Translations under genes and position numbers: made by a program
Notes under the pieces: model-generated
What the model was told of the DNA's origin: nothing
What the model saw: only the letters and a program-made list of their open reading frames with translations
Databases searched by the model: none
Part shown: positions 5,995 to 62,731 of the stretch, piece by piece
Position numbering within the stretch: the stretch's first letter is position 1
Layout: each line of letters begins with the position of its first letter
Assembly (NCBI GenBank): GCA_013151735.1
Contig: JAADHR010000179.1
Coordinates: forward strand, 12,656-76,655
Direction of reading: 5' to 3'
DNA length: 64,000 bases
DNA from: Calditrichota bacterium
Lineage (GTDB): Bacteria > Zhuqueibacterota > JdFR-76 > BMS3Abin05

Positions 5995-6030
5995 AAATTA
6001 TTGAAACCACGGAAGGAATGAGAATAAGGA

Positions 6031-14654: not shown

Positions 14655-15016
14655 AAGAATCCTCCGAAATTAATAGAATATATCAATATTAAGATAACGA
14701 AATTTCACGGCAAATGTTACAAAAAATTTCGGGTATTTCCGATCGGCCTTTAAGAGCTCTATTACGTGCCTGTCCTGTTATAACTCCCGGTCCGGCCTGT
14801 TTTTAAAATGATGCACTCTTTGGGAAAATATCACTGTAAATTCTTGAAAAGAAATAAAATGATCAGAATGAATATATGACAATTTTTTAACAAATATTGA
14901 CTTGACAGTCTGATGAAAAATGTATACATTAAATGAAATTTGATTGGGCTTTTCCTTCTTCCGGTTGGGTGTTCTTTCTGCTGAAAAAACCTTGTTTAAT
15001 CCAGGACAAAATACGC

Positions 15017-16456
15017 ATGAAAAAACTATTCTCACTGACTCTTTGGGTGATGTTTTTTTCAAATACCCTTTTTGCTCAGGGCACGAGCAGTAAAATAGAG
15101 AAATTAGTGGGCGGTCATTTCGATTTTGATGGTGAAGTGGTCAGTACCTCTTTGTCTTCTCTTCATTCCGGCCGGTTTACGCCCTCAAACAATTATCTGG
15201 CCTGGATGGATTTTTATCAAAACCCGGCCTTCTCAACGGGTATTAAAAATCCCTTTATAACCACCTTTTTTGCGCCGTCTATTGCGATTCATCCCAATCG
15301 ATTTATGGATGTGAATGGCCGCGTTCAGCGGGCAATAGACAATGGAATAGCCAGTTACCGGTCTGATTCGCTCCGATTGATTTATCCTCAACTCGAAAGT
15401 GTCTTCCGCAAGAACCGATATTGGGGACAGGGTCTCATCAGTTTTCCGGCAGGCGGCGTTGTGTTTACATTGGGCTACCAGCGTCAGCTTTCACTGAATC
15501 TTCAAACCTTTTTAACAGGGGCAGAGGCGACCATTTCCACCCAGGTGCCCCTTTCAGAAACTACAAGTGAGGTGGTTTTTAATGCCTTCCTGGATGCCAA
15601 TTTTCGGTTCAGCATAAATGTGGACAAGACCACAATGGGATTGGCGAAGGTCATTCGCAACCGGTTTGCATTTGGATTTTCTCTGGATCGGTATGGCGGG
15701 AATGTTGAAACGGTTGGATTCATGGATGCGCAGGGGGACATGCTTTTTAACGGTCACGAGTATATTTTTAATAATTCCAATGATAATTGGTACAACCGGC
15801 TGACACAGGCTATTAAAGGCCGATACAAGGGAAGCGGTTGGCGGATGAATTGGGGCGGTTGGTATGTTTATAATCGGAATTTCATTTTCGACGGCGTCAT
15901 TTCCATGCAAACCCCCATGCGCCTGGATGGAAATCTCTCTATTCACGTTAACAAAATTCCCGCACTGAACATCGACGCCCTGTCTTCGGATGATCCCAAC
16001 GCGGAAATTCTGGATCCGGCGAAGCTGGATTTGTCCCAATTAACCCTCACCGATTCCGTAGAAAATCCCACATATCCGGCCCTTTTTCTGCATCAACAAT
16101 CGTATCTGAAAGTGGGAGTTCTCTACCAAACGCCGCATTTTTATTGGTACAACAGTATGGTCCAGAATTTTGGTTACGCCGGAATAGGCTATGGACCCTA
16201 CGAATTTGGATTGCAATCAAAACTGGATTGGCAAACCCTGTTTGGATTCCATCATTTTTATATGGAAATCCGATTAAAATATATGAAGAGTTTTATTCAT
16301 CATTCGGAAAAGCTCGGAAAGGGAGAAAGCCGAATCTGGCTGCCTTCATTTGCCATGGGGTATGCCCGGCTGTTTCAAAAACATTACCCGATTCATGTCG
16401 GACTTTCCCTTTTGCCCGATCCCATTCTCTATTTTTCAACGGGCTACCAATTTTAA
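15017..16456 (+). CDS. Secreted outer-membrane beta-barrel protein, FadL/PorV-like (candidate T9SS-associated)
   Basis: Signal peptide MKKLFSLTLWVMFFSNTLFAQG. 'FYQNPAF' NPA hatch-like motif. Aromatic C-terminus ...GYQF. Sits immediately upstream of two T9SS cargo genes. Confidence 0.45.
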   Translation: MKKLFSLTLWVMFFSNTLFAQGTSSKIEKLVGGHFDFDGEVVSTSLSSLHSGRFTPSNNYLAWMDFYQNPAFSTGIKNPFITTFFAPSIAIHPNRFMDVNGRVQRAIDNGIASYRSDSLRLIYPQLESVFRKNRYWGQGLISFPAGGVVFTLGYQRQLSLNLQTFLTGAEATISTQVPLSETTSEVVFNAFLDANFRFSINVDKTTMGLAKVIRNRFAFGFSLDRYGGNVETVGFMDAQGDMLFNGHEYIFNNSNDNWYNRLTQAIKGRYKGSGWRMNWGGWYVYNRNFIFDGVISMQTPMRLDGNLSIHVNKIPALNIDALSSDDPNAEILDPAKLDLSQLTLTDSVENPTYPALFLHQQSYLKVGVLYQTPHFYWYNSMVQNFGYAGIGYGPYEFGLQSKLDWQTLFGFHHFYMEIRLKYMKSFIHHSEKLGKGESRIWLPSFAMGYARLFQKHYPIHVGLSLLPDPILYFSTGYQF

Positions 16457-16506: not shown

Positions 16507-19500
16507 ATGCAAAAAAAAGCAGTTCTAATTTGGATTGGGCTAATTGTCCTGATGTTACCCCATCAGGCTGCGGCCCAGCAAATTACACTTACAAGCGTAC
16601 CCTATCAGCTCATTAGTGAGTCCGAATCCGTTACGGTGACATGGGCAGAGCCGATTCAGGCGACACTTCATTACGGAACGACCCATGGAGTGTACAATGC
16701 CTCAATTTCAAAAAGCGGTACGCGCTCACTCACATTTACTCCGCAAAATGAAGGCATTCATCCCGGGGTTTATTATGGGATTATTACCAATGGCTCGCTG
16801 CGGTCGGCTGAGTTTCCGTTCATTGTAGAGGCATCTGTGTCTCCGATTATGCGCGAACCCACAAATAACGGAACCGTTCGGACAGCCACGCCTGAATTTC
16901 AGTGGGATGAAGTTTCCGGGGTTCCCTTTTACCACCTCATTCTTTCCGATCACGAAGCGATTATTACACGGGATCCCGATACCGGCGAGTTGCAGTTAAC
17001 CGGTGCCAATATCATCTGGCAGGTGATTACGTCTGAGACACATATTACGTATGGCGATCCCGATCCTTCCGGCTACTTTACGGATTTCAACGGGACCACT
17101 CCGCCGCTGCTCAATGGAAATCACTACACCTGGATCGTGCTGAACAACTATGGAAATAATCCGGCCTTCACATCATTGGTTCAATCAGGTGTAAGTGCGT
17201 TCTACGTTAATCTTTCCACGACAGCAGCCAAGCCCATTCTTATCTCACCGGCTGACGGAGTCTCTCTGAATTCAAAAACCATTACATTCCAATGGCAGCC
17301 TGCGTCCGGTGCGGTCAATTATCAAATTTCACTGTTTGAGTACATTTACGAAGAGGGAAGTTCCTCCAGCTTTCTCATTTGGAGCACCACCACTTCGAAT
17401 ACGTCCATTGATTTTCCGGCACGCACAGTATTAAAGGGAACGAAATACGCCTGGCGTGTACTGGCCATGGACAATTCCGGCAACGGAACGCCAAGCGACA
17501 CGCGTCAATTTTCTTACACTGTACCGGTCAGCGCATTAAGCATTCGCACCCTTCAGATGGATGGAACCAATCTTCCCCGAACCAACGTTACCTTAACGGC
17601 TATTGATGGCTCTTCGGATAACGTGTCTTTCATTACATCGGATAATGGCAATTTTACAGCTACGGTCCGGCCGGGTTCGTATGCGATTACGGGTTCAAAG
17701 GAAGGCTTTTTGGATACGACTAAAACCGTTGAGGTGGAGGCGGGGGATACCCTTTCCGTCGCATTGCGTTTAAGGAAGGCGTCCCATCGCGTAAAGGGGG
17801 TCACGCGTAACCAGGCCGATCAGCTTCTGCCGTCTGTTTCACTGCGGGCGGAAGAGAATCTTTCCGGCCGGCTTCTGGAGACCTCCTCCGACGCAAACGG
17901 GAATTTCGTACTCAGCCTTTCCAGCGGGGTCTGGGATATCTGGGGACAGAAAGAGAACTATTCCAATTCAGATACGGTTCGGGTTGTGTTATCATCTCAG
18001 GAAGAAGTAACCTTGGCTCAGCCCCTTGTTTTAAAGGAATTTGACAGTTTCATTACGGGTACGGTGGTGGATGTAAATAAACAGCCCGTTATTACGGCAC
18101 GCGTACAGGCACAGAAGGATGCACGGGTTGTTTCTCAGTTTACGGCCAATAATGGATCTTTTCGCTTGCAGGTGAGCAGCGGCAAGTGGACGGTGACGGT
18201 TACAAAGGGAGGCTATGTGAGCCCGGCGCCCCGAATTGTCCAGGTGACGCCCGGAGCGACAATAAATCTGACTCCCGACCTGGAGCTCACGTCCAATGCC
18301 GGGGTTTTGACCGGCTTTGTTTTCAGCGGACAGAACTCCGTAAATGGGGCGGAAGTGAAGGCCATCCCTCCGTCAGGACAGCCGGTTTCTTTTTTAACCG
18401 ATCCCAAGGGAGCGTATGCGTTGAATCTGGCTCCCGGGAATTATACCGTCACCGTTTCCAAGCAGGGGTACGCACCACCTGACCCGCTGCAGGTATCTCT
18501 GCACTCCGGTGAAACCCTTTCCAACCTGAATTTTAATCTTCGGGTAAATCCCGTTTTTATCTCCGGAAAAGCCGCCTCAGGCGGAAAACCCCTTGAAGGG
18601 GTGATCATTCAGACAGACGGGGCAAACGACACGACTCTTTCTGACGGGTCTTACCGCCTTTGGGTTCAACCCGGGACGTACCGAATAACGGCATCCAAAA
18701 CGGGATATGCGGCAACGGGAATTCAAACCGTAACCATTGCCCTGGGTGAAAATAAGACAGGGGTCAATTTTACACTTGTGCCCAATGTTGGAACGATTAA
18801 GGGACGTGTTCAACAGGGGAATTTGCCCATTGTGGGGGCAGCCGTTTTGGCCTATTCCGGAACGGATACATTTCGCACGCTGCCCGGAAATGTGGGACAA
18901 TACACCCTTTCGGTAAAACCCGGCACCTGGACAATCCGGGCTGAAAAGGAAGGCTTTGTTCCCGCCCAATTGAATACGCCCGTGCAATCCGGTCAAACCG
19001 TTACGGGTGTGGATTTCAATCTTACACTCAACTTGGGCACGATTTCCGGAAAAATCACGGACAATCATGGACGGGCGGTTGAAAATGCATGGGTCGATGT
19101 GATTGGAGAAAATCTCCAATCGGTGTCTGATCTGAATGGAAATTACACCATTCAGCTGGAACCGGGACCTTACCAGCTAAAGGCATGGAAACCGGGGTTT
19201 AGCAGCCAGACGACGTCCGTTACGGCAGTACTTAATTCAACAATTACGAAGAATTTTTCCCTGACCACCATGGGAACGTTGACCGGAAAAATAACGGACA
19301 GTTCCACGGGTCTGCCCATCAATAAGGCGGCCGTGTGGGTGATCCTGGGAGCCGACACGACGCAAACGGAAACGGATTACACGGGCGAATACACCTTTTT
19401 TCTCAATTCGGGGACGTACACCCTGGTCGCCGATCAATTGGGATATCACCGAAAGCAGCTCAGTGTGTCGCTTGCGGCAGGTGCCGTCAAAATCCAAAAT

Positions 19501-20712
19501 ATGGCGCTTCAGCCGGATCCCACGGAAATAGCCCGGATTCAGGGCAAAATTCTGGATGATTTTCACAAACCTATGGTGGGTGTTCCAATTTCACTCTCCG
19601 GTGGGAAGGTGGATATCATTTACACGGAAACGGATGGAACGTACGATATCAAGAAACTGCAAACCGGTTTGGATTACACCCTGCGTCCCAAACTGCCGGG
19701 CTTTTTCTTCGTTCCGTCCAAAAGACGCTTTGCTCCTCTGATCGCCAACAAAACCGGCCAGGATTTTGCCGGAGCTCTGTACGGAGATGTGAGCGGCAAC
19801 AAAGAGGTCAGTTCATTTGACGGGTCGCTTATCCTTAGAATCAGCGCTCAGCAAAATGTGGCCCCGTATTATCGAAATCAGCCGAGGGATTCCATCGCGG
19901 CCGACGTCAGCGGTAACGGACAGGTGAGTTCCTTCGATGCATCGCTTATTTTTCGCTATTCGGTCAATCTGATTGATCGCTTTCCTGTGGAACCGTCCCG
20001 ACTGGGAAAAGGGCTCGAAAATTATTCTGATCCGGAGGTTCACGTGTTTACATTTGCGGTGAAACATCTGGATGAAACCCGTTGGGCTGTTGATATTCAA
20101 GCGGATAATCTGAATCATATTTACGCCACGCAATGGAAAATTGAGGTCGATCGGCAGTGGGTAAATGTACAGAATTGTGTCTTGTTCCGCTCCTCGGAAG
20201 GCCATGCTCTGGCCTGGTCGGAGAAAAATGGTGTGCTTACCATTGCAACGGCGGGCCCTGAAGCGCTGGAGGGCTCCGGAAAACTGCTTCGCATTTTGAT
20301 TGAGGTGAAGGGGGATCCGTCCATTTCCCCCGAAACCTTTTTGGAGGTGAGGCAGGTGCAGGTGAATGAGGGGCTGGTTGTGTCAGAATTTCAGCCGCCT
20401 GAACGGACCCGGCTTCCAACGCAATTTCGTTTGTATGATAATTATCCCAATCCCTTCAACGGTGAAACCCTGATTCGGTTTGCGGTTCCGTCAGAAGACC
20501 ATGTACAAGGGGTTTCAGTCGATTTGTCCGTTTACAATGTGCTGGGACAAAAGGTGCGGCAGCTTGTGCAAAAAAAACTGGCACCCGGCTATTATCAGTT
20601 CAAATGGAACGGAACGGACGAATCGGGCAATCAGGTTCCGGGCGGGGTCTATTTTTATCGATTAAAGGCCAAAAATCGGGTTTATGTGAAAAAGCTTTTA
20701 CTTTTGAAATAG
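16507..20712 (+). CDS. Giant T9SS cargo protein: FN3-like and about 9 carboxypeptidase-regulatory-like (CarbopepD_reg) repeats, a type-I dockerin pair, a cohesin-like module and a T9SS C-terminal sorting domain
   Basis: Signal peptide. Repeated roughly 80-aa G.V.D..G.P...A.V...TD.dG.F units. Dockerin pair DVSGNKEVSSFDGSLILRIS / DVSGNGQVSSFDASLIFRYS. C-terminal YPNPFNGETLIRFAVP...GVYFYRLKA (T9SS type-A CTD). Confidence 0.8.
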   Translation: MQKKAVLIWIGLIVLMLPHQAAAQQITLTSVPYQLISESESVTVTWAEPIQATLHYGTTHGVYNASISKSGTRSLTFTPQNEGIHPGVYYGIITNGSLRSAEFPFIVEASVSPIMREPTNNGTVRTATPEFQWDEVSGVPFYHLILSDHEAIITRDPDTGELQLTGANIIWQVITSETHITYGDPDPSGYFTDFNGTTPPLLNGNHYTWIVLNNYGNNPAFTSLVQSGVSAFYVNLSTTAAKPILISPADGVSLNSKTITFQWQPASGAVNYQISLFEYIYEEGSSSSFLIWSTTTSNTSIDFPARTVLKGTKYAWRVLAMDNSGNGTPSDTRQFSYTVPVSALSIRTLQMDGTNLPRTNVTLTAIDGSSDNVSFITSDNGNFTATVRPGSYAITGSKEGFLDTTKTVEVEAGDTLSVALRLRKASHRVKGVTRNQADQLLPSVSLRAEENLSGRLLETSSDANGNFVLSLSSGVWDIWGQKENYSNSDTVRVVLSSQEEVTLAQPLVLKEFDSFITGTVVDVNKQPVITARVQAQKDARVVSQFTANNGSFRLQVSSGKWTVTVTKGGYVSPAPRIVQVTPGATINLTPDLELTSNAGVLTGFVFSGQNSVNGAEVKAIPPSGQPVSFLTDPKGAYALNLAPGNYTVTVSKQGYAPPDPLQVSLHSGETLSNLNFNLRVNPVFISGKAASGGKPLEGVIIQTDGANDTTLSDGSYRLWVQPGTYRITASKTGYAATGIQTVTIALGENKTGVNFTLVPNVGTIKGRVQQGNLPIVGAAVLAYSGTDTFRTLPGNVGQYTLSVKPGTWTIRAEKEGFVPAQLNTPVQSGQTVTGVDFNLTLNLGTISGKITDNHGRAVENAWVDVIGENLQSVSDLNGNYTIQLEPGPYQLKAWKPGFSSQTTSVTAVLNSTITKNFSLTTMGTLTGKITDSSTGLPINKAAVWVILGADTTQTETDYTGEYTFFLNSGTYTLVADQLGYHRKQLSVSLAAGAVKIQNMALQPDPTEIARIQGKILDDFHKPMVGVPISLSGGKVDIIYTETDGTYDIKKLQTGLDYTLRPKLPGFFFVPSKRRFAPLIANKTGQDFAGALYGDVSGNKEVSSFDGSLILRISAQQNVAPYYRNQPRDSIAADVSGNGQVSSFDASLIFRYSVNLIDRFPVEPSRLGKGLENYSDPEVHVFTFAVKHLDETRWAVDIQADNLNHIYATQWKIEVDRQWVNVQNCVLFRSSEGHALAWSEKNGVLTIATAGPEALEGSGKLLRILIEVKGDPSISPETFLEVRQVQVNEGLVVSEFQPPERTRLPTQFRLYDNYPNPFNGETLIRFAVPSEDHVQGVSVDLSVYNVLGQKVRQLVQKKLAPGYYQFKWNGTDESGNQVPGGVYFYRLKAKNRVYVKKLLLLK
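19777..19990 (+). other. Dockerin type-I module (two Ca-binding repeats) inside the 1401-aa protein
   Basis: Both repeats match D-V-[NS]-G-[DN]-G-x-V-[NS]-S-x-D-x-x-L-[IL]-x-R-[YI]. They are separated by a linker of about 25 aa. Confidence 0.7.
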
Positions 20713-20715: not shown

Positions 20716-23700
20716 GTGTCTATGAAACGTTTATGCGTGTTTTTTTGGGGAGCACTACTTTTTGCCACGACGGCCTATGCTCAAACCGTTACGGTCTCGG
20801 TGCCGGATATTCAGCAGTCGGAAGGAAAAACATTCCGGTTGCCGGTGAAGGTGTCTGACCTTTCCGGGTTAAATATTTACTCATTCGATTTAACGCTGGT
20901 TTATGATCCCGGTGTTTTAACGGCTCTGGATGCCCGAACGTCGGGTTCCCTTTCGGCCTCCTGGGGGCCGGCCACAAAAAACATCACCAGCGGGCAAATT
21001 CAGGTGGGTATTGGGGGAACGAATGCCTTGTCGGGTGCCGGGGATTTGATTTACCTTATTTTTAAGGTCAATAATGGGGTGTCTGTCGGCAAAACGTCCA
21101 TATTGACATTTACAAACTTTAAATTCAATGAGGGGTCTCCATCTGTCCAATTAAACAATGGAACATTTACGGTTATTTTGGATACCGAGCCCCCAAAGAT
21201 CACATCGGGCCCGCAGGCAGTCAATCTTACAGCGCATTCGGCCGACATTCACTGGCGAACGGATGAACCCGCCGACAGCAAGGTGGAATACGGACTCACC
21301 TCTTCGTACGGAGACGTGTTGGAAAATTCCTCCTTGGTTACGTCCCATTCGGTAACGCTTCATCCACTCAAACCTTCGACTACCTACCATTACCGGGTTG
21401 CATCCAAAGACAAATTGGGGAACGGCCCAACGGTTTCTTCGGATCAAACCTTTACAACGGCCGCTATTATTGCCCGTTTGCCTTCGCTTTCCCTGGATCC
21501 GGGGGCGGACATTATTTTCCCTCTGACCGTGACGGATGTTTCGGAGCAGGGGATTACGTCTGCAGAAATCGTCGTCACCTACGACGCCGGACTTTTATCT
21601 CCGACAGGCGTCAGTTCGGACGGCACCCTTATTTCCGCATGGAATTCTCCGGCATTTCAGGTGGAATCCGGAAAAATCACCATTACCCTTTCCGGTACGA
21701 CACCTTTGAGCGGGTCGGGGATTTTGGTCAACATACAGTTTCACATTTCAGACGCGGCGAAAATCGGGCAAACCACGCCCCTTACATTTCAGAAATTTAT
21801 GTTGAAAAACAGCGGGGGCGAAACCATACCTGCCACCACCCAGAACGGGCGGTTTACCGTAGAGGATACGCGTCCTCCGGAAATTGTGTCGGGTCCGCAG
21901 GTGGAATCCATCACTGCCAAAAGTGCCGTAGTCACCTGGCAGACCAATGAAAAAAGTACCAGTATTGTGCGATATGGGCGCGATACATCGTATGGATGGC
22001 AGAAAAAGAATCAGACGCGTACCCTTCAGCATTCCGTTCTGTTGTCCAATCTTTCACCGTCTACGACGTACCATTTTCAGGTGGGCTCAGTGGATTCCAG
22101 CGGGAACGGTCCCACATTCAGCCAGGATGCCACTTTCAGCACGGAAGCCGGAACCGGAATTATTTTAACGGCGGAAAATGTCACGGGACAGGCGGGAAAT
22201 GATGTCACCGTGCCGCTCCGGGTGACGGATGTAAGCCAGCAGGGCGTCAGACGCTACACCGTTGTACTGACCTACGATTCGGAGCTGATCACGGCGGTTT
22301 CGGCTCAAACGTCCGGTACTTTAACGTCCGGTTGGGGCGCTCCGGTTTTTCAAAAAGTGGATGGACAGGTGGTTATCCAGGGACAATCCGGTACGCCCCT
22401 TGCCGGAGCGGGAGTACTGGTGAAGGTGATTTTTCACGTCAAATCGGACGTAACCGACGGCGTAACCACTCCTATTTCCTTTGTCTTTGCCCAATTCAAT
22501 ACGGGGATGCCTGAATTGACCACCGCGAACGGGTTGCTTACCCTTCGCGGAACCCCCGACAGCCAGGCACCGCAGATCACGTTTGGACCCTTTGCACAAA
22601 ATATCTCGGCAACCGGGGCACAAATCGTTTGGGTTACGGACGAGCCTTCTTCCGGGATTGTGGAATTCGGAACGGGGACCTCCTACGGACAAACGGCGGG
22701 GGGGGCAGCTGTTTTTGAACGGATTCACCGGATCACCCTGTCGGGGCTGCTTCCGGGCACCCGCTACCATTTTCGGGTCAAATCATCGGATCGCTGGGGA
22801 AACGGACCCACTGTCAGCCCGGATGCTTCTTTCCAGACCACCAATGGAGGGGAAGTACAGGTCTCTCTTCCCAACCGGACCATTCGTGCCGGAACACAAT
22901 TCGACTGGCCCATTCAAATCGGGGACGTTTCCGGAAAGTCCGTTTATTCGGCCGACATCACGGTGACTTTTGATCCCGACGTGCTCACGGCCATTTCGGC
23001 CTCTACGTCGGGGACACGGGCCAGCAGTTGGGGGCCTCCCACCACAACCGTGAAAAGGGGCAAAATAATTATTGCGATGGGAGGAATTAGTGCCCTTAGC
23101 GGCAGTGGCAGCCTGGTCAAAATCCGCTTTCAGGTATCCGGATCCGCAAAGGAAGGAACCCAGGCACCGGTTGTTTTTCAGCGGTTCGTTTTTAATGAAG
23201 GAACACCGGCTTCTGTTTACAGGGGGGGACTGTTTACGGTCAAGGATGTGACGGCACCGAAAATTACAGCGGGACCCTCCGTGGTGGCAAAAACGGCGTC
23301 TACGGCCACTATTTTGTGGGCAACGAATGAAGCGTCTACCGGGAGGATTGACTACGGTGAGACCGCTTCTTACGGCCAGATGGAAGAAAGCGGCATTCTC
23401 GAAAAAAGTCACCTGGCGGTCATAACCGGATTGTATTCGGGGACAACCTACCATTTTCGTGTCTCATCAACGGATGCCAGTGGAAACGGGCCCACACAAA
23501 GCGCCGACCAGACCTTTCAAACGGTGGTTGAACAGCCCATGATTTTCCGGCTGCCTTCCGTGGCCTACGATGTGGGACACACATTTGATTTACCCGTTCG
23601 ATTGGACAGCCTTGGAAATGGCAGTCTGTATTCCTTCAAAATGACCCTGAAGTTTGATTCCCGTTATCTCGAGGCAACAGGGGTGAAAACTGCAGGAAGT

Positions 23701-26700
23701 TTGACCGAGTTCTGGGAAGCGCCCGTGGTGAGTGTCGGCCCGGATTCGGTTTCCATTGAAATGCGTTCCAACAATCCGATCCACGAAAACGGCGTTCTTT
23801 TTAAGGTACAATTTCGGGTTAAAACCGGTGGAGCTTACAATTACCCGACTCCTCTGACTTTGCAGAATGTTTCTGCAAATGGCCTTTCTTCGGGCTTCGT
23901 TATTCGGGAGGGCCGCTTTACGCTTCGCGATCTGACGCCTCCGGAAATCTTGACGGGTCCCAATTCCACCGAGGTTCGGGCTCATTCGGTTCACATTGTC
24001 TGGACAACAAACGAGCCGTCCAACAGTAAAGTGGATTACGGAGTGACTTCCACGTATGACAAGGCTGTTGAAAGCGAGGACCTGGTAACCTACCACGATC
24101 TGGCGGTTGCCGGACTCAATCCAAACACGACGTATCATTTTCGTGTCAGTTCAACCGATTCTGTGGGCAATGGGCCGGTTCAAAGCACCGATCAAACCTT
24201 TACCACGACGTCTGGAAATGAGGTGGTGGTTTCCATTCCCGACACCCTGGCCCCTGTGGGGCAGACCATCTGGTACCCGGTTTCTGTTGAAGATGTCACC
24301 GGAAAGAACATCACCCGCTACCATTTCATCCTAAAATACGATTCTTCGGCGGTTCGCGCGCTTCAGGTGAGAAAAACCGGAACGCTTTCAGCATCCTGGG
24401 GTACGCCCACCGTTGGGATAACCGACACATCTATTACAGTGGATCACACCGGAAATGCCCCTCTTTCGGGCAGCGGAGATTTGATTCAGATTCAATTTAA
24501 GATTAAGGCCACGGCCGGAGTGGGCCGGGATGTGGGACTGATTTTTCAAGAGTTTACCTTTAATACCGGAGATCCGCCGGCTTCCCCCAACAGCGCACGA
24601 TGGCTTTTGGTTGACCGCACCCCGCCTGAGTTTGTGGGAACGCCAAAGGTCACAGATGTGGGGTTTAATTATGCGACCCTATTCTGGAAAACCAATGAAT
24701 TAACGACAGGCAAAATTGATTACGGCACAACACCCAGTTACGGAAAACAACTCAAAGAAACGAAAATAGACACCGTTCACCGGATCACGATAGAGAATTT
24801 GACCGCTCTTACAACCTATCATTTCAGGGTGTCTGTCACGGATACGGCAGGGAACGGGCCGGTTTTGAGCAAGGATCTAAGCTTCACCACATTGTCCGAC
24901 ACGGTTTTTGTTACCGTCCCCGACACAACGGTCCCCATGGGCAGTACGTTTGAATTGCCGCTGGTCGTAACCAATCTGACGGGATTTGGAATCACCCGTT
25001 TTGCCATTGAGATTGCCTACAATCCCGATCAGATTACGGCGTTGGGGGCGTCTTCCAGGGGGACACTTGCTCAGGATTGGGGTGTGCCTGCTTTTTCCGC
25101 TTCCGATCATGTGCTTCACGTGGAAATGTCCGGGACAGAGCCGCTCAAAGGAACCGGTGTTTTAATCCGGCTGAAATTCCAATTATTGGGTGGTGTGGTG
25201 CCCGGCACGGATCTGGAAATTCCGTTTCAATCGTTTCAGTTTAATAACGGAACGCCGGTTGTAAAGACCACACCGGCAAAAATCCACGCCATTGCGGGGG
25301 GGAGCGGAATTGAGGTTTCCCTGCCGGATACCAGTTTTTTACCCGGCAAAAGCGTGCGGATCCCGGTCAGGGTAGGAGATCTAACTCAGAAAGGAATATT
25401 CTCATTTAACGGGAAATTGGTTTTTTCTCATTCGGTTCTCAAAATAAGCGGCGCCACCACCCAAAAGTCCCTGCTGGAAGCCTGGAAGACAATTGATGCG
25501 TCTGTTTACCCGGACAGCGTCATTTTTTCGGCGCAGGGGACAAAGGCTCTTTCGGACTCCGGTGTCTTATTTTATTTTGAGGGGACAACCAATTCTCAGG
25601 CCAATGAAGGCGATACGAGTTCCCTCATTTTGGAGCGGTTTACCTTTAATCGCGGAAACCCTGTGGCTCAGGTGAAAAACGGGAGAGTGCGAATTGTTAT
25701 CCGTCACGATGCCATTTCGGGCCTTGTTTTTGAGTCGGACAGCGTAACGGTTTTACCGGGCGCGACAATTTCTGCCCGGGAAACGGGAACCCAAACCGTA
25801 AAAACGGCCCGGTCGGACACAACGGGATTTTTTCAGATTCGCGGTCTGGATTCAACCCGAACCTATGACGTGTTTGCTTCCAAAGCGGGTTACACCCCCT
25901 CGGACATTTTGAGGAAAATCAAGCCCGGGGCCCGAAATCTGAAATTGTACCTTGAAAAACAAAACGGGTTTATTGACGGCTGGGTTAAGGCGAATACGGG
26001 TGAACCGGTGGTGGGGGCTCTTGTCGTGGCAGACGACGGACACACGCACTTCGGTTCGGGGAATACGGACTCTACCGGCCACTTTGCCATCAACAATCTG
26101 GCAAAACGGTACGCGTACACAGTGAAGATTACAAAATATGGTTTTCACGATAAAATTATTTCCAATGTTGCCGTCAATCAAACGGTTTCCGTTACACTGG
26201 ATTGGTTTTACGGCCGGGTTTTGGGAATGGTTAGAGACACGACCCGGGCACCCATGGATAGTGTGTGGGTACAGGCATTGAATCTGAAAAAGGGAACGCG
26301 AGTGGACAGCTTCTTAACCGGAAAAGACGGCCGCTACCAACTGGACAGCCTGAAAGCCGACCAATATTTGGTTTACGCTCTTCGTAACGGATTTGTCAGT
26401 ACGCCCAACCAGGTCACGGTTAACCTGGCACCCGGAGATACCGTAACGGAAGATTTTATCCTGGAAAAGGCTGTTTTGGCCTCGATTGAAATCTCGGGCG
26501 ACCGGGAGATTCCCAATAATGTTCCTTCCCGTTTCGATTTTGTGGCCAAGACGGCCGGCGGAAAGGTCATGGGCCTGCAATCGCCCGTCTGGAAACTCTG
26601 GCCGGAGGCCGCGGGGGTTGTCAGTCAGGGGGTGGTGTACCCGGATTCTCAGTATTTTGGGGAGGCTTTTCTGTCCGTAATGGACCCGTTTACCGGAATT

Positions 26701-27447
26701 GCAGATACACTGGCCATTTCTCTGTATGCTCCGGTGAGCCCTTCTTCGCAGCTCACCGTTAAAAATGCAGACGGCGTAACCCTGGCCATTGCGGCGGGAT
26801 CCGTAGACCAGCCTCAAAAAATAAAAATTCAAGCCATCTCGCTTCCATCCGTAAAGAAGAGTACAAAGCGGTACGCGGCTTTGGGGAAAGGTTATCTGCT
26901 GAAACCGGGAGGCTTTCATTTTCTAAAGCCCCTCCAATTAACTCTGCCGGTTCCGGAGGGATTTGTTCCGAAGCGCACGCGCATCGGCAAATGGAATCAG
27001 GAATTGGCCCGATGGGACATTCTGGAAACCCGGGTAACCGGAGAGCGTGCGATTACGGCCGATGTGGAATCCTTTTCGCTTCTGGCCGTTCTTAACCCGG
27101 CACGTGATCTCGGAATGGAATCGCTCAAATTGATCCCGAATCCCTTTTCGCCTGTGGTGGATTCGGATGGGGATGGCAGTCCCGGCCTGACCATTCAGTT
27201 TTTAATTACCTCACGGGACACGCGGCGTCCCTTTGTGACCATTGAGATTTACAGCATGGTCGGCCAGAAGGTGCGAACCCTGTTGGATGACCAGCCGGAA
27301 AATAAGGACCAGTATTTGCGCTTTCACTGGGATGGGCTGACCGATGATGGCCGAATGGCCCGAAACGGGCGCTATCTGATAAAAATTGACGTATCGGATG
27401 CAACCGGTACAAAAACAACCCTTAAAACCGTGGTTCTGGTGAAATAA
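20716..27447 (+). CDS. Giant scaffoldin-like T9SS cargo protein: 8 cohesin-like modules (7 of them each followed by an FN3/PAP-N-like module), CarbopepD_reg-like repeats, T9SS C-terminal sorting domain
   Basis: Each cohesin-like module starts with an (V/I)x(V/L)S(L/V)PD... motif and has ...GSGxLIxIxFKV... in its C-terminal half. FN3-like modules ...P(P/K)ITSGP...W(T/R)T(D/N)EP...YG.T.SYG...TYH(Y/F)RV.S.D..GNGP. C-terminal LKLIPNPFSP...IEIYSMVGQKVRTL...GRYLIKIDV CTD. Confidence 0.8.
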   Translation: MSMKRLCVFFWGALLFATTAYAQTVTVSVPDIQQSEGKTFRLPVKVSDLSGLNIYSFDLTLVYDPGVLTALDARTSGSLSASWGPATKNITSGQIQVGIGGTNALSGAGDLIYLIFKVNNGVSVGKTSILTFTNFKFNEGSPSVQLNNGTFTVILDTEPPKITSGPQAVNLTAHSADIHWRTDEPADSKVEYGLTSSYGDVLENSSLVTSHSVTLHPLKPSTTYHYRVASKDKLGNGPTVSSDQTFTTAAIIARLPSLSLDPGADIIFPLTVTDVSEQGITSAEIVVTYDAGLLSPTGVSSDGTLISAWNSPAFQVESGKITITLSGTTPLSGSGILVNIQFHISDAAKIGQTTPLTFQKFMLKNSGGETIPATTQNGRFTVEDTRPPEIVSGPQVESITAKSAVVTWQTNEKSTSIVRYGRDTSYGWQKKNQTRTLQHSVLLSNLSPSTTYHFQVGSVDSSGNGPTFSQDATFSTEAGTGIILTAENVTGQAGNDVTVPLRVTDVSQQGVRRYTVVLTYDSELITAVSAQTSGTLTSGWGAPVFQKVDGQVVIQGQSGTPLAGAGVLVKVIFHVKSDVTDGVTTPISFVFAQFNTGMPELTTANGLLTLRGTPDSQAPQITFGPFAQNISATGAQIVWVTDEPSSGIVEFGTGTSYGQTAGGAAVFERIHRITLSGLLPGTRYHFRVKSSDRWGNGPTVSPDASFQTTNGGEVQVSLPNRTIRAGTQFDWPIQIGDVSGKSVYSADITVTFDPDVLTAISASTSGTRASSWGPPTTTVKRGKIIIAMGGISALSGSGSLVKIRFQVSGSAKEGTQAPVVFQRFVFNEGTPASVYRGGLFTVKDVTAPKITAGPSVVAKTASTATILWATNEASTGRIDYGETASYGQMEESGILEKSHLAVITGLYSGTTYHFRVSSTDASGNGPTQSADQTFQTVVEQPMIFRLPSVAYDVGHTFDLPVRLDSLGNGSLYSFKMTLKFDSRYLEATGVKTAGSLTEFWEAPVVSVGPDSVSIEMRSNNPIHENGVLFKVQFRVKTGGAYNYPTPLTLQNVSANGLSSGFVIREGRFTLRDLTPPEILTGPNSTEVRAHSVHIVWTTNEPSNSKVDYGVTSTYDKAVESEDLVTYHDLAVAGLNPNTTYHFRVSSTDSVGNGPVQSTDQTFTTTSGNEVVVSIPDTLAPVGQTIWYPVSVEDVTGKNITRYHFILKYDSSAVRALQVRKTGTLSASWGTPTVGITDTSITVDHTGNAPLSGSGDLIQIQFKIKATAGVGRDVGLIFQEFTFNTGDPPASPNSARWLLVDRTPPEFVGTPKVTDVGFNYATLFWKTNELTTGKIDYGTTPSYGKQLKETKIDTVHRITIENLTALTTYHFRVSVTDTAGNGPVLSKDLSFTTLSDTVFVTVPDTTVPMGSTFELPLVVTNLTGFGITRFAIEIAYNPDQITALGASSRGTLAQDWGVPAFSASDHVLHVEMSGTEPLKGTGVLIRLKFQLLGGVVPGTDLEIPFQSFQFNNGTPVVKTTPAKIHAIAGGSGIEVSLPDTSFLPGKSVRIPVRVGDLTQKGIFSFNGKLVFSHSVLKISGATTQKSLLEAWKTIDASVYPDSVIFSAQGTKALSDSGVLFYFEGTTNSQANEGDTSSLILERFTFNRGNPVAQVKNGRVRIVIRHDAISGLVFESDSVTVLPGATISARETGTQTVKTARSDTTGFFQIRGLDSTRTYDVFASKAGYTPSDILRKIKPGARNLKLYLEKQNGFIDGWVKANTGEPVVGALVVADDGHTHFGSGNTDSTGHFAINNLAKRYAYTVKITKYGFHDKIISNVAVNQTVSVTLDWFYGRVLGMVRDTTRAPMDSVWVQALNLKKGTRVDSFLTGKDGRYQLDSLKADQYLVYALRNGFVSTPNQVTVNLAPGDTVTEDFILEKAVLASIEISGDREIPNNVPSRFDFVAKTAGGKVMGLQSPVWKLWPEAAGVVSQGVVYPDSQYFGEAFLSVMDPFTGIADTLAISLYAPVSPSSQLTVKNADGVTLAIAAGSVDQPQKIKIQAISLPSVKKSTKRYAALGKGYLLKPGGFHFLKPLQLTLPVPEGFVPKRTRIGKWNQELARWDILETRVTGERAITADVESFSLLAVLNPARDLGMESLKLIPNPFSPVVDSDGDGSPGLTIQFLITSRDTRRPFVTIEIYSMVGQKVRTLLDDQPENKDQYLRFHWDGLTDDGRMARNGRYLIKIDVSDATGTKTTLKTVVLVK
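20785..25700 (+). repeat. Tandem coding repeats: cohesin + FN3 modules with a period of about 680-695 bp (x7), then a cohesin-only unit
   Basis: Module starts at about 20785, 21463, 22154, 22850, 23538, 24221, 24901 and 25306. Similarity is at protein level, so the repeats are diverged rather than identical. Confidence 0.6.
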
Positions 27448-27449: not shown

Positions 27450-28385
27450 ATGAAAAAACGAACGCTTGTAATTTTCGTGTGGCTGCTGCTGGGTGTGGGG
27501 GTGACGACCGTCCGGGCTCAGGACTTGGCCGGTATCCCTGCTGCTTTTGTGGACATCGGATTTGGGGCCCGGCCCTTGGGTATGTCCGGCGCGTATTCCG
27601 CCGCAAGTAACGGGGTGGAATCGCTTCTCTGGAATCCGGCCGGACTGGCGGGAGTCCCTTTTGTTCAGGGAACATTCAGCACCACCCGGCAGCTGGGACT
27701 TATCCCTTATCAAATGGCGGCGGCCGCCTTTCGCTTCGGGCTGAATTTTGTTCATTCCGAAGGAATCATCCTTTCGGGCGACGACGCCATGCGGGAATTT
27801 ACATTTCTGGTGGGGTTGAGCTACGAAAAACGGTGGGAAACCGGGTCTTGGGTCAGAGGCGGGGCGACGATCAGCTACCGCAATGCCAGCTTTGGGAAAA
27901 ATGCCGCTCAGAACGAGGGAGCAGTCACCGGAAGCGCATCGGGATTTTCCATGGATTGGGGCGTTCAGTACTCCCCGGCGAAACACTACGTTCTGGCGGC
28001 CGTCCTGAAAAATATGGTAAATTATCTGCAATGGAACAGCTCCACTCTCGGAAAATACAGCGAGGGTACACCCAGGCAATTGGTTTTTGGTCTCGCTGCA
28101 TTGGACATTTTGAAATTTAATTTTGATTTGGATTTCGAGAAAGCTCTCTACCAAGACGTTGCAGACCGCTTTTCTTTTGGGATGGAACGCCCGATTTACA
28201 AATACTTTTTTCTGAGAGGCGGCATTTCACGGGGATTGGTTCCCTCGGATTTCTTATCGACGGCCGTTGGCGGGGGACTTCGGTATCGGTTTCCTCAGGG
28301 GTTTATCCTGTATCTGGATGGAGCGTATATTTTTCAGGATTTAAACAACAATTTCCGGCTGTCGGTTTCTTTCGATCTGGAATGA
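27450..28385 (+). CDS. Small outer-membrane beta-barrel, FadL/PorV-like (NPA hatch motif); candidate T9SS cargo-shuttle/anchor partner
   Basis: Signal peptide MKKRTLVIFVWLLLGVGVTTVRAQ. ...GMSGAYSAASNGVESLLWNPAGLAG resembles the FadL-family N-terminal hatch. Starts 3 nt after the scaffoldin stop. Confidence 0.45.
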   Translation: MKKRTLVIFVWLLLGVGVTTVRAQDLAGIPAAFVDIGFGARPLGMSGAYSAASNGVESLLWNPAGLAGVPFVQGTFSTTRQLGLIPYQMAAAAFRFGLNFVHSEGIILSGDDAMREFTFLVGLSYEKRWETGSWVRGGATISYRNASFGKNAAQNEGAVTGSASGFSMDWGVQYSPAKHYVLAAVLKNMVNYLQWNSSTLGKYSEGTPRQLVFGLAALDILKFNFDLDFEKALYQDVADRFSFGMERPIYKYFFLRGGISRGLVPSDFLSTAVGGGLRYRFPQGFILYLDGAYIFQDLNNNFRLSVSFDLE

Positions 28386-31894: not shown

Positions 31895-33139
31895 ATGAGC
31901 CATTTTAAATGGGTGCTTCTGCTGGTCGGTTTTGCTTTTTTGTGGGGAGGCTGTTCGAAAGACGTCTCACCATTACAGCCGGTGGGGACGCATACGTTAA
32001 CCCCTCTTGAAAAAAAGGTGGTTTCCTCCAGTAACGATTTCGGCTTCAATTTGTTCAAAGAAATTGTTCGTGAAGATTCCAGCGAAAACATCTTTGTCTC
32101 GCCTTTGAGTGTATCCATGGCGCTGGGCATGACCCTAAACGGGGCCAACGGGGAAACGGAACGCGCCATGAAGACCACGCTTGGCTTTGGTGACATGGAT
32201 TTGAAATCGGTGGACACCGCCTACAGGTCGCTCATAACCTATCTGCTTCAAGCGGATCCCAAAGTCATTTTTGAACTGGCCAATTCCATCTGGTACCGAA
32301 ATACGTTTCCCTTTGAAAAAAGTTTTTTTGATGTGGTCCGAACCTATTTTCAGTCCGAAGTGCAGGGGCTCAATTTTAATGATCCGAATTCGGTGAAGAT
32401 CATTAACAACTGGGTGGCAGCGAAAACACACAATAAGATCAAAAGCATTCTGGATCGGATTGACAAAAGTTCTGTCATGTTTCTAATCAATGCCATTTAT
32501 TTTAAAGGAACGTGGACCTATCAATTCAAGAAGGAAGCCACCCAAGAAGATAGTTTCTATCTGCCGGACGGCTCAACGATTTCCGTCCAGATGATGAACC
32601 AATCCGGAGAATACGACTATTTTGAAACGGATCAGTTTCAAGCCATTGATTTGCCCTACGGAGATGGCGCTTACAGCATGACCATTTTCCTGCCCACACA
32701 CAATGTGCCGCTGGATTCGCTCATTGGCCAGTTGAATCCCCAAACCTGGCATACCTGGATGGGGCGATTTGAGAAGAAAAAAGGCGGTATTTTGCTGCCA
32801 AAATTTACCCTTCGCTACAAAATTAACTTAAACAGCGTATTAGAAGCGCTTGGGATGGGCATTGCCTTTAGTCCCTCACAGGCCGATTTTACCCGAATGA
32901 GCAAAAAGGGGGGACTTTACATTGGATTCGTCAAACACAAAACCTTTGCCAAAGTGGACGAAGAAGGAACCGAAGCTGCTGCCGTGACGGTGGTGGGCAT
33001 GTATGCTACAAGTGTCGGAGGGGGGAGCAATGGATTTACGATGATCGTCAATCGGCCCTTTTTGTGTGTGATTCGGGAGCACGCCACGAACACAATTGTA
33101 TTTATCGGTAAAATTTCGCACCCGCAATGGGAAGATTAA
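31895..33139 (+). CDS. Serpin (serine protease inhibitor), lipoprotein
   Basis: Lipobox LLLVGFAFLWGGC. Serpin core motifs ...FVSPLSVSMALGMTLNGANGET...MFLINAIYFKGTW...FLCVIRE... Hinge/RCL region ...EEGTEAAAVTVVGMYATS. Confidence 0.8.
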   Translation: MSHFKWVLLLVGFAFLWGGCSKDVSPLQPVGTHTLTPLEKKVVSSSNDFGFNLFKEIVREDSSENIFVSPLSVSMALGMTLNGANGETERAMKTTLGFGDMDLKSVDTAYRSLITYLLQADPKVIFELANSIWYRNTFPFEKSFFDVVRTYFQSEVQGLNFNDPNSVKIINNWVAAKTHNKIKSILDRIDKSSVMFLINAIYFKGTWTYQFKKEATQEDSFYLPDGSTISVQMMNQSGEYDYFETDQFQAIDLPYGDGAYSMTIFLPTHNVPLDSLIGQLNPQTWHTWMGRFEKKKGGILLPKFTLRYKINLNSVLEALGMGIAFSPSQADFTRMSKKGGLYIGFVKHKTFAKVDEEGTEAAAVTVVGMYATSVGGGSNGFTMIVNRPFLCVIREHATNTIVFIGKISHPQWED

Positions 33140-35427: not shown

Positions 35428-35684
35428 CGTGTTTGTCCTTTCCTTATTTGGAAATCCTGGTCATTTAACAAACTACACCAATGTAAAAAACAACCGGTTT
35501 AAATTCAAGCAAAATCCACTTGGCGAACTGCCAACGGCTAATTTGAAACAGACCCATGAAATTTGCGTAGATTAGGACAAACTTGAAAAGGATTCCCATT
35601 TGGGCTGATTTGAAATGACCCGAGGGCACTTTTCTTTTCACCGCGTCCGGTTTGTCGGAGTCAATTTTAGAAAGGAGGAATGGC

Positions 35685-40184: not shown

Positions 40185-41561
40185 ATGCCCATGCGAATTT
40201 TATTGGTAGAAGATGAAAAACTCAAGCGCATTTCACTGACGGATGCTCTTGAGAGAAAAAATTTTGAGGTCATTCCCTGCGAAAACCCGATTGATGCGCT
40301 TGCTGTATTGGAAGAAGAAGCAGCCATAGACGTTATTGTCACGGACTTAAAAATGCCAAAAATGAATGGCATCGATTTCATTAAAAAAGTTCGTGAATTT
40401 GATAAAGAAATCCCTATTATTGTTGTAACCGCCTATGCCACGGTAGAAACGGCCGTGGATGCCATGAAATTGGGGGCCTACGATTACATCACCAAACCCT
40501 TTACAACCGATGAACTGATTCTTGTTCTGGATCGTCTCAGGGATTATCAGGAAATTGTGCGGGAGAACATTTATCTAAAAGCGAAAATACGAAGCCGTTA
40601 CCGCTTTGAAAACATTATTGGCCGCTCCAAACCCATGCAGGAAATTTATCGTATTATTCAAACCATAGCCGATTCGGATGCCACGGTCCTCATTCAGGGG
40701 GAGAGCGGTACGGGAAAAGAGCTTATTGCCAATGCGATCCATTTTAACAGCAACCGGCGAAACAAACCCCTTGTTTGTGTCAGTTGTGCCGCTCTAACGG
40801 AGAGCCTTTTTGAGAGTGAGATTTTTGGCCACGAAAGAGGGGCATTCACAGGAGCAGTAAAAGAGAAAAAAGGCCGTTTCGAACTGGCCGACGGAGGAAC
40901 GATCTTTCTGGATGATGTGGACGATATTCCCCTGTCGTCGCAGGTAAAACTGTTGCGAGTTCTTCAGGAAAAAGCGTTTGAGCGGGTGGGGGGTACAAAA
41001 AGCATTTCTGTGGATATTCGTGTGGTGGCCGCGACAAAGGTTAATCTTCTTGAAAAAGTCAAGCAGAATGAATTCAGGGAGGATTTGTACTACCGCCTGA
41101 ATGTTGTTCCCATTTTGTTGCCGCCGCTCCGGGAGAGAAAGGAAGATATTCCCCTGTTGATTGACCACTTCATGAGCAAATATCAAACAAAATCTCCCGT
41201 ACGAAAATTTTCAAATGACGCCATGAAAGTCATTCTTTCGTACGACTGGCCCGGGAATGTGCGGGAGTTGGAAAACATCGTAGAGCGCATTTGTACACTT
41301 ACCACGCATGAAATCGTTGAATTGGAGGATCTCCCGGATTTTCTTCTGGTTCCTTCAAAAACAACATTTAACTGGCGGGGATTTTATGGTCATCACCCTC
41401 AACTGGATTTTGCGGAACTGATTCGATCCTATGAAAAGGAGCTGCTGATTTGGGCACTTAACAAGGCCGGTGGAAATCGCAGCAAAGCGTCTCAATTATT
41501 GCAGTTAAAGCGTACAACTCTTCAGGATAAATTGAAGAAATATGGCCTTCAGGAGAAATAA
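40185..41561 (+). CDS. Sigma-54-dependent response regulator (NtrC family)
   Basis: REC (VIVTDLKMPKMNG), GESGTGKELIA, GAFTGA, ESEIFGH and a C-terminal HTH. Confidence 0.9.
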   Translation: MPMRILLVEDEKLKRISLTDALERKNFEVIPCENPIDALAVLEEEAAIDVIVTDLKMPKMNGIDFIKKVREFDKEIPIIVVTAYATVETAVDAMKLGAYDYITKPFTTDELILVLDRLRDYQEIVRENIYLKAKIRSRYRFENIIGRSKPMQEIYRIIQTIADSDATVLIQGESGTGKELIANAIHFNSNRRNKPLVCVSCAALTESLFESEIFGHERGAFTGAVKEKKGRFELADGGTIFLDDVDDIPLSSQVKLLRVLQEKAFERVGGTKSISVDIRVVAATKVNLLEKVKQNEFREDLYYRLNVVPILLPPLRERKEDIPLLIDHFMSKYQTKSPVRKFSNDAMKVILSYDWPGNVRELENIVERICTLTTHEIVELEDLPDFLLVPSKTTFNWRGFYGHHPQLDFAELIRSYEKELLIWALNKAGGNRSKASQLLQLKRTTLQDKLKKYGLQEK

Positions 41562-48376: not shown

Positions 48377-48705
48377 GATAGCACACTCTTGTGTGGACGA
48401 GGAAAATGTGTATTCTTTTTCGGTTCTATTGGCTTTTTTGTGGAAAAGACAATCTTTTTGGAAATAGAACCCGGTCTTTTAAACCCACCCCCTGACTCCC
48501 CCTCCCTGATCTCCTCCCTGATCTCAGGGAAGGGGCCGGAGGGAGGGTCAGAAATGGAATGCTTTTCATGTTTCAAGAAAAAAGATCCACAAAAATTCCA
48601 GTAGAGCCTCTTTTTCTACAAGAAGTGAAAAGGGATGCACATTTCCTCTTATTAAAAATGCAGGATCGAGGATTATTTCCATTTAAAACCTAAGGAGGAC
48701 CAGCC

Positions 48706-49164: not shown

Positions 49165-49185
49165 ATAAAGGAGGTGAGTGTAGTT

Positions 49186-55626: not shown

Positions 55627-55645
55627 ATAAAAGGAGGGTATTTTT

Positions 55646-62726: not shown

Positions 62727-62731
62727 TATTT

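Follow-up and report, generated by a model that had tools for sequence, protein, structure and literature searches.

A four-gene Calditrichaeota locus encodes an eight-cohesin scaffoldin-like protein, a dockerin-bearing partner and predicted type IX sorting domains

Introduction

What is known of cohesin-dockerin assembly comes almost wholly from cellulolytic Firmicutes, which are Gram-positive. The closest described system within the Fibrobacteres-Chlorobi-Bacteroidetes (FCB) group is that of Cloacimonadota metagenome-assembled genomes (MAGs), for which Williams et al. (2021, PMC8542988) inferred a 3,755-amino-acid (aa) scaffoldin-like protein with tandem cohesins and carbohydrate-binding modules (CBM2/3), a conserved domain at the C-terminus (CTD) for cell attachment, with a review of type IX secretion systems (T9SS) cited, and dockerin-bearing GH18, GH57, S8 and C25 enzymes. 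Here we describe a locus in a 64 kb stretch of a Calditrichaeota MAG (GCA_013151735.1, contig JAADHR010000179.1, positions 12,656 to 76,655 of the forward strand; hereafter the window, whose own numbering is used for coordinates throughout). The locus centers on a scaffoldin-like protein of 2241 aa, with a dockerin-bearing partner encoded directly upstream and a PorV/PorQ-family protein encoded directly downstream, and we consider that it is probably a four-gene operon specifying a cohesin-dockerin assembly displayed on the cell surface through the T9SS. The original prediction, which was made from the DNA of the window without database searches, had presented a T9SS-displayed scaffoldin as an unusual system; this was overstated, because the concept of a T9SS-tethered FCB scaffoldin is already known from the inferred Cloacimonadota protein (PMC8542988).

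In CipA of Clostridium thermocellum, cohesins 3-8 are >94% identical to one another and 61-76% identical to the other CipA cohesins, according to 10.64898/2026.01.19.700288, and Peer et al. (2009, as cited in PMC8542988) described cohesins and dockerins outside cellulosomes from every domain of life. A 2024 genomic survey of bacteria that display cellulosomes (PMC11557425) counts three Bacillota and one species of the Planctomycetes-Verrucomicrobia-Chlamydiae superphylum among its borderline 'scaffoldin-containing' genomes, and the words Bacteroidota, phyla and Gram-negative are absent from its main text; the genome paper of Caldithrix abyssi mentions neither cohesins nor secretion systems. 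We found no prior description in the literature of the scaffoldin family of Calditrichaeota and KSB1, the putative marks of which are divergent, positionally conserved cohesins spaced by FN3 domains, an operon partner that combines a dockerin, a cohesin and a CTD (Doc-Coh-CTD), and a PorV/PorQ-like gene.

Results

Sequence comparison places it beyond doubt that the scaffoldin-like protein carries eight cohesin modules. Pfam Cohesin (PF00963) matches the protein in eight stretches with E=1.7e-85 and 284.7 bits, against a cutoff of 24.1, and a profile built from the eight modules retrieved 22 matches from the PDB, all of them cohesins, spanning type I, II and III scaffoldin cohesins, an Archaeoglobus cohesin and NagJ. 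The fourth module (Coh4) was modeled with AlphaFold2 at high confidence (predicted local distance difference test, pLDDT, 97.7; predicted template modeling score, pTM, 0.90), and when this model was compared with the PDB using Foldseek the 50 best matches were all cohesins. It superposes on CipA (1aoh) and on cohesin 6 of Acetivibrio cellulolyticus ScaB (5nrm) with a template modeling score (TM) of 0.86 and a root-mean-square deviation (rmsd) of 2.3-2.4 Å, so the cohesin jelly roll proposed in the original prediction is borne out for this module, as is the family assignment by Pfam. The longest helical element that DSSP assigns within the 132 residues of Coh4 is a three-residue turn, and the model resembles compact type-I cohesins, which is our own reading of the structure rather than a formal classification. 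A generic Ig or PKD identity of the modules is ruled out, as all sequence and structure searches gave cohesins.

The gene lies in an uninterrupted open reading frame (ORF) of 2243 codons that extends on the + strand from a GTG at 20716 to 27447, as had been described. The deposited protein (P0001, GXO76_12430, annotated as a 'hypothetical protein') is 100% identical, is 2241 aa long and begins at the ATG at 20722, which is probably the true start. Read by eye, the N-terminus (MKRLCVFFWGALLFATTAYA, followed by Q) is a typical Sec signal peptide. A self-search delimited the cohesins, each of 129-135 aa, as Coh1 (aa 24-156; 20785-21183), Coh2 (aa 250-384; 21463-21867), Coh3 (aa 481-612; 22156-22551), Coh4 (aa 713-844; 22852-23247), Coh5 (aa 941-1072; 23536-23931), Coh6 (aa 1169-1300; 24220-24615), Coh7 (aa 1396-1524; 24901-25287) and Coh8 (aa 1531-1661; 25306-25698). 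Eight such modules had been predicted, seven of them alternating with FN3/PAP-N-like domains. Coh1 to Coh7 do alternate in this manner, with six spacers between them (21184-21462, 21868-22155, 22552-22851, 23248-23535, 23932-24219 and 24616-24900; six Pur_ac_phosph_N/fn3 stretches in Pfam), and Coh8 abuts Coh7 with no FN3 domain between. The two sequence signatures ascribed to the modules are looser than first described: the opening motif (V/I)x(V/L)S(L/V)PD is found in its strict form in three of the eight and in relaxed forms in the rest, and the block G[SAT]GxL[IV]x[IV]xF is found in six, with ENGVLFKVQF in Coh5 and DSGVLFYFEG in Coh8 at the same place.

Beyond the cohesins lies a region of CarboxypepD_reg or transthyretin-like repeats (25702-26526), which comprises three Pfam stretches and an SdrD_B-like stretch, and the protein closes with a T9SS type-A-like sorting domain (27121-27444) in the place where a type-II dockerin, an S-layer homology (SLH) domain or a sortase signal might otherwise stand. 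The C-terminal strings LKLIPNPFSP and GRYLIKIDV cited in the original prediction are present in the translation. No catalytic Pfam domain was detected in the protein, and no CBM family was found among its Pfam matches at E<=0.1.

The gene directly upstream (16507-20712, + strand) encodes the dockerin-bearing partner, a protein of 1401 aa with a signal peptide, an N-terminal Ig/FN3-like region, a PEGA domain, seven or more CarboxypepD_reg domains, the dockerin, a divergent cohesin and a T9SS type-A CTD, and in which Pfam detected neither a catalytic domain nor a CBM. The dockerin (19780-19986; aa ~1092-1160) consists of two segments, DVSGNKEVSSFDGSLILR and DVSGNGQVSSFDASLIFRY, that follow the tandem dockerin pattern of a Ca-binding loop (D-x-[NS]-x-[ND]-x-x-[VI]-x-x-x-D) and then a helix over ~22 residues. 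Pfam Dockerin_1 (PF00404) passes its cutoff marginally over aa 1092-1151 (24.4 bits against 22.9). Spaced 39 residues apart, the loops themselves (DVSGNKEVSSFD and DVSGNGQVSSFD) show little or no variation across 19 orthologous loci, and a motif scan of all six frames found no second such pair in the window. A dockerin-bearing protein, which the original prediction had expected somewhere in the source genome, is thus encoded by the gene adjoining the scaffoldin. When the dockerins of the orthologs are aligned, mean column identity is 82%, the loop-helix segments are nearly invariant while the flanks diverge, and the dockerin is by far the best-conserved part of the C-terminal third of the partner. 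The profile of this alignment matched solved dockerins in the PDB, the best being the A. cellulolyticus ScaB dockerin (4uyq_B, 2.4e-12). Both segments carry S-F and then L/F-R at the positions which, in the numbering used for C. thermocellum, hold the recognition pairs of type-I dockerins; a symmetry of this kind would fit a dual mode of binding.

The association between dockerin and array is strict. When species-representative genomes were scanned, this dockerin subtype turned up in 14 of them, in a single copy in each (64-94% identity), and a cohesin array comes directly after it wherever the locus extends far enough downstream. Likewise, wherever sufficient sequence is available, partner orthologs of 1369-1426 aa stand directly upstream of that array.

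The cohesin array itself is old and DIFFERENTIATED. Its eight paralogous cohesins share only 19-41% pairwise identity, and full-length orthologs from Calditrichaeota and KSB1-labelled MAGs (31-86% identity) have eight cohesins at near-identical residue positions. In distant orthologs, cohesin i finds its best match in cohesin i, nearly always at positions 1-4 and often at positions 5-8. Conservation among these distant orthologs is uneven: the CTD is the most conserved part of the protein (50%), the FN3 spacers are conserved at 34-46%, and the cohesins fall into Coh1 (43%), Coh4 (40%) and Coh2 (37%) on the one hand and Coh3, Coh5, Coh6, Coh7 and Coh8 (26-29%) on the other. Because the paralogs are divergent, the orthology is positional and the conservation is uneven, homogenization is not taking place among the modules, and they have a history of their own at each position. 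A recent tandem amplification is ruled out by the low paralog identity and the position-by-position orthology. Length variants exist with ten cohesins (P0008-P0011) or with three to four (L014/L015, P0032), and these too, in loci of known context, come after the dockerin protein. In the databases, members of the family are annotated as 'hypothetical', 'fibronectin type III domain-containing', 'chitodextrinase' or 'carboxypeptidase regulatory-like' proteins.

These conservation patterns bear on whether the cohesins recognize dockerins at all. The two giant proteins consist entirely of beta-sandwich repeats, the CarboxypepD_reg region of the scaffoldin has a weak likeness to the S-layer glycoprotein Kustd1514 (83 bits, where the cutoff is 1400), and conservation is poor in five of the eight cohesins. 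One could therefore imagine a structural or adhesive fiber in which the cohesins are rigid Ig-like spacers with no part in dockerin recognition, and in which the two proteins independently form an S-layer-like coat or an adhesin. We judge this to be quite unlikely, because the constraint on the dockerin far exceeds that on the sequence around it and because its linkage to the cohesin array is strict, both of which would be hard to explain unless cohesin and dockerin make contact. Moreover, conservation of the cohesins is position-specific, with Coh1, Coh2 and Coh4 conserved to about the same degree as the FN3 spacers, which suggests specific roles.

The partner also has a cohesin-like domain of its own (20032-20391; aa ~1176-1295). 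It was detected with a local cohesin hidden Markov model (independent E value 2.3e-5) and modeled by AlphaFold2 with pLDDT 75-91; its top matches in a Foldseek search of the PDB are all cohesins, with E from 2e-6 and target-normalized TM scores of 0.5-0.64, and an ortholog fragment (P0123) has a precomputed PF00963 match. By domain order the partner is therefore a Doc-Coh-CTD protein that is formally like an adaptor scaffoldin.

This arrangement invites the explanation that the partner is self-contained, its dockerin binding its own C-terminal cohesin, either within one molecule or as a daisy chain, and the Doc-Coh-CTD unit having nothing to do with the array. Dockerin, cohesin and T9SS CTD modules do recur together in small, unrelated FCB proteins (in that order in P0131 and P0283, and as Coh-Doc-CTD in P0296), so the cassette may work alone. 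We nevertheless consider such an arrangement highly improbable here, since an intramolecular pair should be conserved together and the partner's cohesin is poorly conserved where its dockerin is nearly invariant. It would also leave the strict synteny with the cohesin array unexplained, and an AlphaFold2 model of the Doc and Coh region showed no confident packing of one on the other, although the dockerin part of that model is unreliable.

Both giant proteins end in domains of the kind recognized by the T9SS. The CTD of the partner (20434-20709) scores 32.2 bits against TIGR04183 (cutoff 23), 47.9 bits against FlgD_ig and 26.8 bits against Por_Secre_tail. The scaffoldin CTD falls just short of the FlgD_ig cutoff (26.3 bits against 27), and its relationship to the neighboring domain emerges from profile-profile comparison: hhalign aligned 18 scaffoldin CTDs with 13 neighbor CTDs at 98.9% probability and an E value of 1.8e-17. 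The two families have a common block order of NPF, IYN-LGQ-V, W-G and G-Y with a basic C-terminus, to which the scaffoldin family adds an insert of ~10 residues, DxDxDG, after NPFSP. Among ortholog scaffoldin CTDs, all 18 matched the C-terminal region of PorU and 10 of the 18 matched TIGR04183 at E<=0.01. The T9SS sorting signal claimed in the original prediction thus stands through its homology to the above-cutoff CTD of the neighbor, whereas the TIGR04183 score of the protein itself is below cutoff; we make the assignment because of that homology and because a PorV/PorQ-like gene is adjacent. Outside Bacteroidota, too, FCB phyla commonly have CTD proteins of the T9SS type, and by source annotation our own matches outside Bacteroidota came from Gemmatimonadetes, Zixibacteria and Calditrichaceae.

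The adjacent gene (27450-28385, + strand) encodes a PorV/PorQ-family outer-membrane protein of 311 aa with a signal peptide. Its alignment to NF033709 is full-length (protein 32-310; profile 5-326 of 326), and all seven of the orthologs compared match the same family, the best at 7.2e-20. A profile of these orthologs found PorV itself as its best match in the PDB (6h3i_F, from the SprA-PorV translocon complex, 1.5e-10), followed by FadL-family barrels; a PDB search with the single sequence gave nothing meaningful, and a Pfam search at E<=10 was also empty.

The genes are tightly packed, with 9 nt between the partner and the ATG at 20722 and 2 nt between the scaffoldin stop and the PorV-like start; a scan for promoters and terminators gave nothing above shuffled expectation. 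The order of four genes (an orphan of ~480 aa, the dockerin protein of ~1400 aa, the scaffoldin and a PorV-like protein of ~300 aa) is kept in full in the window and in L003, L004, L005 and L007, the PorV-like gene lies 3' of the scaffoldin in all seven loci examined, and the cluster recurs in MAGs of the Calditrichaeota/KSB1 type. In one KSB1-type genome (L001 8290-9459) a DDE transposase takes the place of the upstream half of the operon. The first gene (15014-16456, + strand) encodes a secreted protein of ~480 aa; its ORF opens at 14933, and the likely start is that of the signal peptide MKKLFSLTLWVMFFSNTLFAQ. In the four further loci named above this position is taken by orthologs of 480-556 aa, and no relative was found in Pfam (E<=10), NCBIfam or the PDB. 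The product ends in GYQF, like the C-terminus of an outer-membrane barrel, and may belong to the system as a novel component in the outer membrane.

A word-indexed search with an 81-aa dockerin profile returned two weak matches and missed the orthologs, and it was replaced by the DNA-level genome scan described above and by an exhaustive phmmer search. The latter returned 1,894 proteins at E<=0.001, with the partner orthologs as the top tier (1370-1426 aa, dockerin near residue 1080) and then a long tail in which many proteins have a dockerin at the extreme C-terminus. A homolog search with the C-terminal 342 aa of the partner gave chiefly fragments and CTD-only proteins. Ten of the closest non-ortholog dockerin proteins carry Laminin_G_3, CHB_HEX_C, LRR, cadherin/Big_9 or beta-helix modules; none of the ten has a clear hydrolase domain, and several have the Doc-(Coh)-T9SS CTD cassette.

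These results can be set against the proposal made for Ca. Stygibacter, namely a true cellulosome-like scaffold, here T9SS-anchored, on which the eight cohesins would recruit dockerin-tagged glycoside hydrolases or peptidases. The multi-cohesin, non-catalytic, type-I-like architecture is what such a scaffold would have, and there is the precedent in another FCB phylum (PMC8542988). Furthermore, secreted-type peptidases (M1, S9, S49) abound in the window, which also has an esterase, L001 has a GH10 xylanase with CBM_4_9 and a T9SS CTD near the locus, and L003 encodes, 7.6 kb downstream of a ten-cohesin ortholog, a DUF5060 protein (L003 25830-28148) whose C-terminus bears a canonical dockerin (DIDQDGQVTSTD / DINCDGQIDDGD). 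The last of these is the only enzyme-like dockerin candidate near any ortholog; neither the peptidases and esterase of the window nor the GH10 of L001 shows a dockerin, and the window holds no dockerin-bearing enzyme. As the scaffoldin also lacks a CBM, the conserved operon partner is non-catalytic and no clear hydrolase domain was seen among the ten sampled proteins, we regard an enzyme scaffold as unlikely, and while enzyme recruitment by the scaffoldin is possible, it is without support from this window. Because the giants have no catalytic domain and the ten related dockerins sampled sit mostly on lectin- or adhesin-like proteins, the cargo is more likely to consist of binding or adhesin-type proteins than of a cellulase set.

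Two further groups of proteins emerged from these searches. The Doc/Coh/T9SS CTD cassette, sometimes partial, is present not only in the three small proteins mentioned above but also in P0128, P0129, P0139 and P0171, which are otherwise unrelated small FCB-type proteins, and this suggests that a T9SS-linked cohesin-dockerin toolkit is widespread in FCB-type organisms. Four proteins (P0243, P0250, P0258 and P0275) have many dockerin-like stretches, ten of them within 762 aa in P0243, and proteins of this kind could act as cross-linkers of cohesin arrays.

Elsewhere in the window, a gene for an M1 aminopeptidase with HEAT repeats (12168-14654, - strand) lies just upstream of the operon, and a bacterial serpin (E 1.1e-119) is encoded beside S9 and S49 peptidases (31895-33139, +; 33358-35427, -; 35652-38111, +). 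Neither the serpin nor any of the M1, S9 and S49 peptidases carries a dockerin, despite the protease-rich neighborhood. A histidine kinase with five GAF domains is followed by a sigma-54 activator (2680-7395, +), and a second sigma-54 response regulator lies at 40185-41561. A cluster at 46889-63697 (+) encodes an Alginate_exp-like outer-membrane protein, a 4Fe-4S membrane protein, a cytochrome b and several MtrC/MtrF-like multihaem cytochromes, together with a molybdopterin oxidoreductase with a twin-arginine translocation signal (49174-51546), and may be a respiratory or extracellular electron-transfer module.

Discussion

Taken together, the domain content, the synteny and the conservation patterns are consistent with a T9SS-dependent surface assembly that could operate as follows. 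Both giant proteins would be exported by Sec through their signal peptides, and their homologous CTDs would then be recognized by the T9SS and direct the translocation of both, with the co-encoded PorV/PorQ-like barrel as their presumed dedicated anchor or shuttle. Once outside the cell, the 2241-aa protein would display eight FN3-spaced cohesins on a stalk of transthyretin-like repeats, and the conserved dockerin of the partner would plug into one cohesin of the array, for which Coh1, Coh4 and Coh2 are the candidates because they are the best-conserved positions. Since the partner has a further cohesin of its own, it would behave like an adaptor scaffoldin, and this cohesin, together with the other fast-evolving but positionally conserved cohesins of the array, might recruit dockerin-tagged surface proteins encoded elsewhere.

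Several observations weigh against this account. With regard to the dockerin, the AlphaFold2 model of the segment has helices at the expected positions at pLDDT 33-49, which is unreliable; the patterns used in the genome scan were very specific, so that its occurrence once per genome applies to this subtype only; and the partner's dockerin might bind the partner's own cohesin in cis or in trans. In addition, the only dockerin in the window sits on a non-catalytic protein, leaving one dockerin for nine cohesins. With regard to secretion, the scaffoldin scores 14.9 bits against TIGR04183 as a whole protein and 17.8 bits as an isolated CTD, both below the cutoff of 23, and the PorV-like protein scores 47.7 bits against the NF033709 cutoff of 90. 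None of the core T9SS genes (SprA/Sov, PorK/L/M/N, PorU) lies within the window, and literature searches on the T9SS in Calditrichaeota and on cohesins in KSB1 found no paper.

More specifically, and only tentatively, as we rate it somewhat short of an even chance, the locus may represent a hitherto undescribed Gram-negative equivalent of the two-tier cellulosome architecture, in which a differentiated eight-cohesin anchor and a Doc-Coh adaptor, both tethered by the T9SS with the help of a dedicated PorV/PorQ-like barrel, organize surface proteins of the lectin or adhesin type and not cellulases. Under this two-tier model each cohesin position would keep its own specificity over the long term, and the array would be a programmable, position-addressed display in Calditrichaeota and KSB1. 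The locus is a compact four-gene system with one obvious cohesin-dockerin pair, in a Gram-negative organism and with type IX anchoring. If the binding proposed here is true, multi-cohesin scaffolding and T9SS display would be combined in at least two FCB phyla, and a function would be provided for the widespread giant 'hypothetical' and 'fibronectin type III domain-containing' proteins of Calditrichaeota and KSB1 MAGs. The eight or nine divergent cohesins and the matching dockerin would then also be of use as orthogonal parts for synthetic surface display; judging from its locus-tag series, the source MAG is presumably hydrothermal and probably thermophilic.

The locus can be compared with several known systems. 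Like CipA of C. thermocellum (1aoh, 1ohz), the scaffoldin is a non-catalytic multi-cohesin protein, and its Coh4 has a type-I-like fold (TM 0.86, rmsd 2.3 Å to 1aoh). Unlike those of CipA, its cohesins are divergent (19-41% identical) and positionally conserved, and there is neither a CBM3 nor an X-dockerin; whereas CipA is anchored by a type-II dockerin to an SLH protein, here a T9SS CTD takes that role in a Gram-negative organism. The ScaB-ScaC pair of A. cellulolyticus (4UYP/4UYQ) offers a second parallel, as the ScaB dockerin is the best solved relative of the partner's dockerin and cohesin 3 of ScaC (4uyp_A) ranks fourth among the structural matches of the Coh4 model (TM 0.85, 22% identity). 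The partner, like ScaB, carries a dockerin and a cohesin, which would provide a link from scaffoldin to scaffoldin; ScaB, however, has many cohesins where the partner has one divergent cohesin, both proteins here have their own sorting domain, and sequence identity is low.

Non-cellulosomal cohesin and dockerin proteins typically have one or two modules each. Examples are the Archaeoglobus fulgidus cohesin (2xdh) and Clostridium perfringens NagJ and NagH (2jh2, 2vo8), which were recovered as matches in this work and which likewise lie outside both cellulosomes and the cellulolytic Firmicutes; in contrast to these, the present family has an array of eight to ten cohesins and a dedicated operon partner. 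In gene organization the locus recalls SprB and SprF of Flavobacterium, where a giant T9SS-secreted repeat protein is encoded beside a small outer-membrane barrel presumed to be specific to it. SprF, a PorP-family protein, serves type-B CTDs, whereas the barrel here is PorV/PorQ-like and the CTDs are type-A-like; if its proposed role is correct, this barrel would be a first case in which a PorV/PorQ-like protein is devoted to one particular type-A-like cargo.

The nearest likeness is with Ca. Stygibacter (PMC8542988), which has in common with the present MAG its FCB affiliation, a giant non-catalytic tandem-cohesin protein with a T9SS CTD, inferred to be attached to the surface, and dockerin-bearing partners in the genome. 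In Ca. Stygibacter the cohesins alternate with CBM2/CBM3 and the partners are enzymes, whereas here the spacers are FN3/PAP-N domains, no CBM is present and the sole identified partner is a non-catalytic Doc-Coh-CTD protein, encoded with the scaffoldin and a PorV/PorQ-like gene in one conserved putative operon of a different phylum (Calditrichaeota/KSB1-type).

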